UHGV virus genome: UHGV-0120250
From: a virus
Length of the DNA: 17,104 nucleotides
Reading direction: 5' to 3' (one strand)
Position 1 is the first letter of the stretch. Every line of letters begins with the position of its first letter. The notes under the pieces are model-generated. The model made no database searches, had not been told where the DNA came from, and worked only from the letters and a program-made list of their open reading frames with translations. The position numbers were made by a program, and so were the translations under genes. This document shows, in pieces, positions 4,110-4,887 of this stretch.

Positions 4110-4199
4110 TCAAATAAGTGGTTTGCTGCCTAATTTCATTTTCTGGCGACCAACACAAGTCACACCCATTTCACTGCGTGGTTTGCGGTAGTAAAGATT
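4110..4199 (-). pseudogene. 3' fragment homologous to the lambda N C-terminus (N remnant, no arginine-rich motif)
   Basis: End of the 67-aa ORF reads ...YYRKPRSEMGVTCVGRQKMKLGSKPLI versus lambda N ...WYSKPGERGITCSGRQKIKGKSIPLI (from memory), 12 of the last 18 residues identical; the N-terminal part of the ORF has no RNA-binding motif. Confidence 0.4.
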
Positions 4200-4305
4200 G
4201 TGCCTGTCTTTTAACCACATCAGGCTCGGTGGTTCTCGTGTACCCCTACAGCGAGAAATCGGATAAACTCTATTCACCCCTACAGAGAGCAAAAGAGAAA
4301 CGCCG

Positions 4306-4887
4306 ATGAACAACTCATGGTGGCAGGAACTAATGCATTTTTTCCTGCAAGGAATGACACTTAAACAGTTGATTCATATGCTAATCATCCTGATCATATT
4401 GATTATTGTTATGCCGGTAAGCGTAAAAGAATGGATAAACCTGCATAATCCAGAAATCCTCCCTCATTATTGGATGTATTACATCCTGTTGTTCTGCGTT
4501 AGCTATGTGCTTAACGGTGTAGTTAATTCCGCTTATCACGCTGTGACTGAAAGAATTGAGGTATCCGCTGCTCAGAAGCGCAAATCCAAAGAAGAAAAAT
4601 ATGTGCAAGATTTGTTTGATTCGTTAACTCTTGGAGAAAGAGCGTATTTGGCATTCGCTGTAGCCGCTAATAACCAGCTACAAACGGAAAAGGGAGCTCA
4701 TGAATCAATTTCATTGCTCAAAAAAGGCCTCCTCGTTCGAAGGCCTCCTGCTGTTGGATATCCTGATACCGACCGTTTTATTATCCCGGAAAACTATAGA
4801 CATGAGTGCTACATTAGGTTTGCCGGGAAGGCAGACAGCCTTATGGATGAACTTATCGCTCAGGATAAGCATGGCAAAAACAAGTAA
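4306..4887 (+). CDS. sieB: SieB-like superinfection exclusion membrane protein, 193 aa
   Basis: Rightward ORF convergent with and 16 bp from N, as for lambda/P22 sieB; two N-terminal hydrophobic segments (LIHMLIILIILIIVMPV, YWMYYILLFCVSYVL); AT-rich. Assignment is by position, size and topology, not by sequence recall. Confidence 0.55.
   Translation: MNNSWWQELMHFFLQGMTLKQLIHMLIILIILIIVMPVSVKEWINLHNPEILPHYWMYYILLFCVSYVLNGVVNSAYHAVTERIEVSAAQKRKSKEEKYVQDLFDSLTLGERAYLAFAVAANNQLQTEKGAHESISLLKKGLLVRRPPAVGYPDTDRFIIPENYRHECYIRFAGKADSLMDELIAQDKHGKNK

Follow-up and report, generated by a model that had tools for sequence, protein, structure and literature searches.

Why does a prophage whose pL operon already holds a complete N gene carry, further downstream in the same operon, the end of another one? 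The question is raised by UHGV virus genome UHGV-0120250, of which a stretch of 17,104 nucleotides (nt), hereafter the window, was analysed. The window covers the early-left and immunity region of a lambdoid prophage with the pL operon on its minus strand. An open reading frame (ORF) of 67 codons on that strand (4110..4313), starting with TTG, lies between the superinfection-exclusion gene sieB and a gene related to gp45 of HK97, and its end resembles the carboxy-terminus of the antitermination protein N; the intact N is found on the other side of sieB. We consider it about 85% probable that positions 4195..4110 are a non-functional remnant of a phage-21-type N, marking one old illegitimate joint in the lambdoid pL operon that later spread and decayed.

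The orphan N 3′ end

The N-derived part of the ORF comprises 86 nt (4110..4195, minus strand), made up of 27 codons (YYRKPRSEMGVTCVGRQKMKLGSKPLI), the stop codon and two nt of the codon before. Aligned without gaps, these 86 nt agree in 84 positions with the 3′ end of the intact N carried by phage vB_EcoP-611R6 (611R6 below) and in 83 with the N of DE3 (imm21), whose immunity region is that of phage 21. The blastn match to 611R6 is colinear over window 4000-4195 (99.0%); further matches were obtained with DE3 N (4099-4195, 95.9%) and with the N 3′ ends of CL707 (4098-4190, 96.8%) and HK542 (4109-4190, 97.6%). Expectation values (E) of the remnant region against phages with an intact N range from 1e-41 to 7e-98 (identity 95.9-99%). 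All 27 amino acids (aa) are identical to the end of 611R6 N; the ORF ends in ...NLYYRKPRSEMGVTCVGRQKMKLGSKPLI and the N of DE3 in ...KQNRIYYSKPRSEMGVTCVGRQKIKLGSKPLI.

The N-likeness of the ORF end is confirmed as real and beyond chance. An earlier note on this DNA had pointed out that 12 of the final 18 residues (GVTCVGRQKMKLGSKPLI) are those of lambda N (GITCSGRQKIKGKSIPLI), and this count holds. A single BLASTP comparison of the ORF with lambda N gave 16/27 identities (E = 1e-7), PHROG 271 ("anti-termination protein N-like") matches ORF residues 32-66 (E = 5e-11), and residues 82-110 of lambda N in the antitermination complex (PDB 6GOV, chain N) match the ORF with E = 0.0096. The identity to 611R6 N together with the PHROG 271 and 6GOV matches places the C-terminal, RNA-polymerase-interacting segment of N in the ORF. 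At the nucleotide level, blastn gave no match of the remnant to lambda N at E < 1e-3, and lambda N was dropped as its source. Because 83-84 of the 86 nt are those of 611R6 and DE3 and no significant nucleotide match to lambda N exists, we assign the remnant to the N C-terminus found in phage 21, 611R6 and CL707, which is homologous to that of lambda and a different allele. The earlier note was thus correct in seeing an orphan N 3′ fragment beside an intact N of another type. It took the old gene to be lambda-type, which the nucleotide alignment does not bear out, and its estimate of about 29 N-derived codons is reduced to 27-28, starting at 4195, with nothing upstream derived from N.

Breakpoint, empty site and filled site

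In alignments the homology to intact N breaks off abruptly at 4195/4196, which corresponds to codon 72 of the 99-codon gene. It begins at tttactacc... (window 4195), just upstream of which the intact N reads ...cagaaccgta and the window ...ggcacaatc. Empty sites are found in 611R6, where the intact 99-aa N is followed directly by the gp45-like gene, and in DE3, where intact N21 is followed directly by orf28-ral. Prophage ESC818 has a filled site: nt 1-192 (95%) and 215-311 (98%) of 611R6 N are both matched, and 789 nt stand in place of the 22 nt of 611R6 N in between. Within these 789 nt are 27 codons and the stop codon of a P22-type N C-terminus, the oppositely oriented sieB and, upstream of sieB, a conserved element.

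The window is also a filled site, with the same sieB cassette as ESC818 at 4196-4973 (99.2% identity over 4099-4969); its limits are given as well by the matches to HK140 (4178-4974, 94%) and P22 (4178-4973, 87%). The right arm of the cassette is the P22-type C-terminal end of the resident N (CLPNVALYAAGYRKSKQLTAR and stop codon; 4904..4973, minus strand), where homology to HK140, P22 and ESC818 ends. Only the last 23 codons of the resident N are carried by the cassette; the HK97/H-19B-type N body with nutL (4904-5496) has boundaries of its own. A small hairpin (ACCAGAAACTGGT, 4973-4985, minus strand) lies within the N coding sequence exactly at the right boundary 4973/4974, probably by coincidence. 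Whether the P22-type and 21-type N C-termini are distantly homologous at the DNA level through a frameshift was considered by eye only; the similarity is too weak to claim.

In the proposed course of events, a segment made up of the coding end of a P22-type N C-terminus, the oppositely directed sieB and the upstream element of about 110 nt would have been fused to codon 72 of a 21-type N. The upstream N would have kept a working C-terminus of P22 type, and the old 21-type C-terminus would have been orphaned between the sieB-upstream element and the next gene of the operon. The scar would then have spread by ordinary homologous exchange and decayed by different routes, remaining undeleted in the window, losing about 61 nt between short repeats in lambda, P22 and HK140, and shrinking in HK97 and H-19B to 62 nt that directly adjoin the N stop codon.

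Decayed forms of the joint

Lambda (J02459 34358-34390), P22 (~1609-1645) and HK140 read ggcacaatc-tttactaccgcaatccac|tatttaaggtgatatATG, which is the joint and the end of the window remnant minus ~61 nt. A 9-base-pair (bp) direct repeat, GCAAACCAC, supplies both endpoints of this deletion: its proximal copy (4178..4186, minus strand) is the left endpoint and its distal copy (4118..4126, minus strand) the right one. The three phages have lost 20 of the 27 remnant codons. In lambda and P22 a vestige of ~33 nt of a phage-21-type N 3′ end can be recognized between the sieB-upstream element and orf28/ral.

The joint has another form in HK97 (~2104-2166) and H-19B (~2182-2243), in which TGA, the stop codon of N, runs directly into ...CTTGTGTTGG of the remnant at the equivalent of window 4163. 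The remnant is cut to 62 nt, with 17 codons kept directly after the stop codon. Both phages match window 3000-4163 and again from 4904, and they are devoid of exactly 4164-4903, the whole sieB cassette; they look like sieB-deletion derivatives. Decay of the scar in relatives of the window comprises the ~61-nt deletion, this truncation, and substitutions in orphan copies.

Remnants of N are also found behind nun. In mEp235 (2124-2584) an intact nun is followed by a terminator-like hairpin and then by the N remnant, and in PA28 (2363-2620) only a nun 3′ fragment lies ahead of the remnant. These two phages provide another, independent joint at a nearly identical codon position of N.

Distribution and variation of the joint

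A 156-nt probe for the joint was covered to at least 80% in 91 of 5,426 complete Escherichia coli genomes, and a 221-nt probe (4100-4320) was covered to the same extent in one of 50,697 phage records, that of Stx1a_10051. An exact 38-mer detected the undeleted joint in 34 IMG/VR contigs and is absent from the GTDB species representatives; the deleted joint is present in 111 IMG/VR contigs. The surroundings of the undeleted joint vary among the 34 contigs. The N beside it is of HK140 type, of HK97 type, P22-like or hybrid; a sieB at 91-99%, a 48%-identical sieB, an unrelated 164-aa ORF or a shorter insert lies between N and the element; and the downstream gene is gp45-like, HK24401-like, orf28/ral or another one. 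Because the same joint recurs with such varied N, cargo and downstream genes, it is best regarded as old and passed on as a linker, not as made in this prophage. The exact set of the window (gp45-like gene, remnant, sieB and HK97-type N) was found neither in the 5,426 complete E. coli genomes nor in the 34 IMG/VR contigs; the sole E. coli match covering at least 80% (92%, in two pieces) has ral between the gp45-like gene and sieB.

A second orphan allele, ending in ...GVTCSGRQKQRGKSI(P/L)AYYD and the stop codon, occupies the same joint in five IMG/VR contigs (L016, L024, L041, L043 and L045), and a further contig (L039) has a hybrid. This allele and the hybrid show what appears to be recombination within the remnant.

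Constraint on the remnant

Constraint appears to be limited to the last ~15 nt of the remnant, where the N stop codon overlaps the Shine-Dalgarno sequence (SD) and ATG of the next gene. In the window these are the SD GAGGTGAG and the start codon of the gp45-like gene (4098..4109, minus strand), as placed by alignments. The junction, ttatttgaGGTGAgatATG, is kept in every form of the joint, including the deleted ones of lambda and P22, and precedes gp45-like, orf28/ral and CL70702 genes alike; the N stop and SD/ATG stretch stays conserved whichever gene comes next. The coding sequence upstream of it has fared differently. Because large deletions are tolerated in lambda, P22, HK140, HK97 and H-19B, we argue that it is probably dispensable. 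Private changes in orphan copies include R to L in the invariant GRQK motif, G to D, T to A, L to S, S to C and K to N.

Some points weigh against a single old joint followed by neutral decay. The N frame is open to its native stop codon in every undeleted orphan copy examined, the second divergent allele included; we attribute this to continuing homologous exchange with intact N genes, and selection on the coding sequence fits as well. The private substitutions, about 11 independent ones of which a hand count gives ~6 as non-synonymous and 5 as synonymous, are too few to separate neutrality from weak constraint. In addition, the single origin of the joint is deduced from identical breakpoints and not from a phylogeny, and the deletion between the 9-bp repeats could be recurrent.

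The alternative that survives best, though we hold it to be rather unlikely, is that the remnant was kept for a role in cis beyond its ribosome-binding site, either as part of the sieB promoter or UP region or as one of two homology arms for the swapping of cargo. The element and the remnant do border a variable slot, with contents from sieB at 91-99% through the 48%-identical sieB and the 164-aa ORF to shorter inserts, and the window itself combines HK97-like DNA with an ESC818-like cassette through ~65 nt of common sequence on each side (4099-4163 and 4904-4969). However, losing most of the remnant has not kept lambda, P22 and HK140 from expressing sieB, so it cannot be essential for a promoter, and the consensus scan detected no promoter. 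A role as homology arm would moreover be a by-product of conservation and not evidence of selection.

The sieB slot and its upstream element

The sieB gene (4306..4887) is on the plus strand, against pL, and is recognized by Pfam SieB (E = 2e-22) and PHROG 1301 (E = 2e-121). Its product is 91.7% identical to SieB of HK140 and 83.2% to that of P22. The conserved element upstream of it (4196..4305, strand not assigned) carries two CTGTAGGGGT direct repeats (4242-4251 and 4276-4285). Region 4196-4313 is 94-99% identical in HK140, ESC818, K56-43, P22 and lambda, and the element hardly changes between lambda, P22, HK140, ESC818 and Stx1a_10051, also in those that have a different gene next to it. 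A structured RNA was considered and rejected: the element gave no fold signal (z-scores +0.11 and -0.78) and no Rfam match. A consensus scan of 4196-4305 found no sigma-70 consensus. We presume the element to be the promoter or regulatory region of the cargo gene, and it may serve a slot of swappable cargo as common promoter or operator.

The slot is polymorphic. The cassette is absent in HK97, H-19B, 611R6 and DE3, and its content varies between conserved flanks. In Stx1a_10051 an unrelated 164-aa ORF (2703-3197, plus strand) and a 148-aa ORF (3228-3674, minus strand) stand in the place of sieB. The same pair is present in 12 of the 34 IMG/VR contigs. Neither ORF has a Pfam or PADLOC match; it is possible that they are uncharacterised exclusion genes.

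A tentative extension, which we regard as possible and on balance doubtful, is that a swappable defence slot expressed in the prophage is flanked on one side by the remnant and the ~110-nt element with its CTGTAGGGGT repeats and on the other by the P22-type N 3′ end, the flanks providing homology arms and a shared promoter. If this were true, lambda and P22 would each have the slot occupied by sieB, and uncharacterised cargo such as the 164-aa ORF of Stx1a_10051 would be a candidate exclusion gene. The scar draws attention to a slot just downstream of N in which the cargo varies and the flanks are conserved; a search of this slot could turn up prophage exclusion genes.

Assembly of this prophage

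Different parts of the window have different closest matches: HK97 for 3000-4163 (98.1%), ESC818 for 4099-4969, H-19B for 4904-5496 (97.3%) with HK97 closest over 4904-5315 (98.5%), and CL707, a phage of lambda immunity, for 5469-6900 (97.6%). In the simplest reading an HK97/H-19B-like early-left region would have gained, or never lost, an ESC818-like sieB cassette. Exchange would have used the shared N-derived flanks 4099-4163 and 4904-4969 as homology arms, and a third shared stretch at ~5460-5496 may have served likewise. Near the pL start, the early-left region would have become linked to a lambda-immunity module like that of CL707.

The earlier note had proposed a more direct history, in which a cassette of sieB and a P22-type N with nutL displaced a lambda-type N in this prophage, in one recent step and with the crossover inside the old N. 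A CL707-like parent is conceivable, as CL707 has the same lambda-immunity module and its N 3′ end matches the window at 96.8%. We nevertheless give this account little credence. The identical 4195/4196 joint occurs with other N, cargo and downstream genes in the 91 E. coli genomes and 34 IMG/VR contigs, and in deleted form in lambda and P22. Sequence to the left of the remnant agrees with HK97 and 611R6 and not with CL707, whose CL70702 is unrelated to the gp45-like gene, and the remnant itself has CGC (R) as in 611R6 where CL707 has AGC (S). Furthermore, sieB and N/nutL do not form one cassette, as the sieB cassette (4196-4973) stops at 4973 inside N and the N body with nutL (4904-5496) is a separate segment. 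What stands of the proposal is the recombination scar with a breakpoint inside an old N, at codon 72 of 99; its recent origin in this lineage does not.

ORF 4110..4313 as a probable accidental frame

The ORF results from the N remnant being in frame with the antisense of the non-coding sieB-upstream element and of the first 8 nt of sieB, which make up its residues 1-39. The in-frame ATG at codon 32 (4220-4218) is present in most copies; P22 lacks it and differs by a 1-nt indel, and in plasmid pCDF6_2 the equivalent frame is closed by a stop upstream of the N part. No SD is seen in the sequence before TTG4313 or ATG4220. The 67-aa product is not in a collection of 15 billion proteins, in which the 36-aa version starting at codon 32 was called once, in an IMG contig. 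Because a conserved start and an SD are lacking, relatives have an indel or an in-frame stop, and the 67-aa product is absent from the protein collection, we judge the ORF to be most likely an accidental open frame and not a gene. Codon-position statistics on its N-terminal 40 codons are uninformative, the region being almost invariant across phages, and for this reason lost starts, frameshift and in-frame stop were relied upon. The frame also lacks what an N would need for RNA binding: as noticed earlier it has no arginine-rich boxB-binding motif, and Pfam N_peptide (PF25694), which matches the resident N with E = 1e-15, has no match in it. The central, NusA-binding region of N is missing as well, since homology to intact N starts only at codon 72 of 99, and the first position of the pL operon after nutL is taken by the resident N, the remnant lying beyond sieB. 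Positions 4110..4313 should not be annotated as a gene, a pseudogene or misc_feature note being the most that is warranted; PGAP occasionally labels such remnants "regulator, partial".

It is very improbable that the ORF or its 36-aa version is translated from the pL transcript into an RNA-polymerase-binding peptide acting as a decoy or modulator of antitermination. Such a peptide would have its C-terminal 27 aa identical to a functional N and aligned to lambda N residues seen in 6GOV, from a frame that is open in all undeleted copies, with an ATG in most of them and one called product. Against this, the putative starts have no SD, P22 is without the ATG and pCDF6_2 has the upstream stop; 20 of the 27 codons are lost in lambda, P22 and HK140, no more than 17 are left in HK97 and H-19B, where they come right after a stop codon, and some copies have R replaced by L in the invariant GRQK motif. 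Resemblance to N by chance or by duplication of the resident N, to which only the short length of the match could lend colour, is dismissed by the 83-84 of 86 nt shared with intact N (E = 1e-41 to 7e-98) and by the unrelated, P22-type C-terminus of the resident N.

Resident N, immunity region and neighbouring genes

The intact N antiterminator (4904..5287, minus strand; 127 aa) has the arginine-rich motif and is of HK97/H-19B type, with 99.2% aa identity to HK97 N and 98.4% to H-19B N. It had been described as P22 gp24-like, which applies to its last 30 aa (70%) and not to the protein as a whole. Upstream of it, the nutL boxB GCGCTGACAAAGCGC (5416..5430, minus strand) is an exact match to the one upstream of N/24 in P22, HK97 and H-19B, so that its earlier description as P22-type stands. 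The assignment of OL/pL and cI to the lambda type is likewise sustained by the 97.6% identity to CL707 over 5469-6900 and by 90.7% identity to lambda over 5460-5734. A consensus scan places the pL promoter (TTGACA, 17 nt, GATACT) at 5499..5527 (minus strand) in a lambda-type oL, and the lambda-type cI is at 6737-7450, listed in the direction of pL. A presumed nutR boxB, TCGCTGACAAAGCGA (7790-7804, plus strand), differs from the nutL boxB at two outer stem positions in a compensatory manner (G-C to U-A).

Between cI and oL, where lambda has rexAB, a 301-aa gene (5745-6650, minus strand) codes for a homologue of the abortive-infection protein BstA (PADLOC E = 2e-105; PHROG 6287 E = 2e-132), 99.3% identical to CL70704 of CL707. 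On the other side of the remnant, the gp45-like gene (3631..4101, minus strand; 156 aa) has 98.7% aa identity to HK97 gp45 and belongs to PHROG 1636, of unknown function; PADLOC and Pfam gave no meaningful matches for it. It travels with the N remnant and directly follows the intact N in 611R6.

Comparison with known systems

The undeleted scar would be the missing link by which two arrangements, the sieB region as found in lambda, P22 and HK140 and the sieB-less junction of gp45 and N as found in HK97 and H-19B, trace back to one joint in a 21-type N. Its value is that the origin of the sieB region of lambda and P22 can be read from it cleanly, no part being deleted; the understanding of antitermination and of SieB is unchanged by it. 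We found no description of this scar in the searchable full-text literature, older subscription papers being beyond reach, so that it may have been described before. Comparative work on HK97 and HK022 reportedly introduced the general concept of gene remnants at "novel joints" in mosaic lambdoid genomes, and the window has the features of such a joint, namely an abrupt homology breakpoint inside a gene and a leftover fragment. Gene remnants at mosaic joints and the modular exchange of N C-termini are already known in lambdoid phages, and this scar is an ordinary instance of them.

With the N genes of phage 21 (in DE3), 611R6, CL707, HK542 and HK244 the remnant has in common the last 27 codons, the stop codon and the SD/ATG junction. 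Unlike them, it is without codons 1-71, and thereby without the central region and the arginine-rich motif that binds boxB; it does not have its own start codon and lies ~1.2 kilobases downstream of nutL behind another N and sieB. The RNA-polymerase-binding C-terminal region of lambda N is homologous to the remnant and the motif TC.GRQK.K..S.PLI is kept, but aa identity is only 59% and the nucleotide sequences show no significant resemblance; "lambda-type" is too loose a name for it.

Between sieB and orf28/ral, lambda (J02459 34358-34480), P22 and HK140 have the same element and joint as the window (tttactaccgcaa.ccac ... tatttgaggtga.atATG), these phages lacking ~61 nt between the GCAAACCAC repeats and the window retaining all 86 nt. 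The gp45-N junction of HK97 and H-19B has the same gp45-like gene, N remnant and N type as the window, which is 98.1% identical to HK97 over 3000-4163; unlike the window, it has no sieB cassette and its remnant is joined to the N stop codon through a shared TGA. A related exchange is documented for gp24 of phages L and P22, whose first 75 aa are common and whose last 25-35 aa are unrelated (PMC8022706). There too the C-terminal module has its boundary 25-35 codons from the end of N, as at the joint described here, in line with N genes swapping their last ~25 codons as a module.

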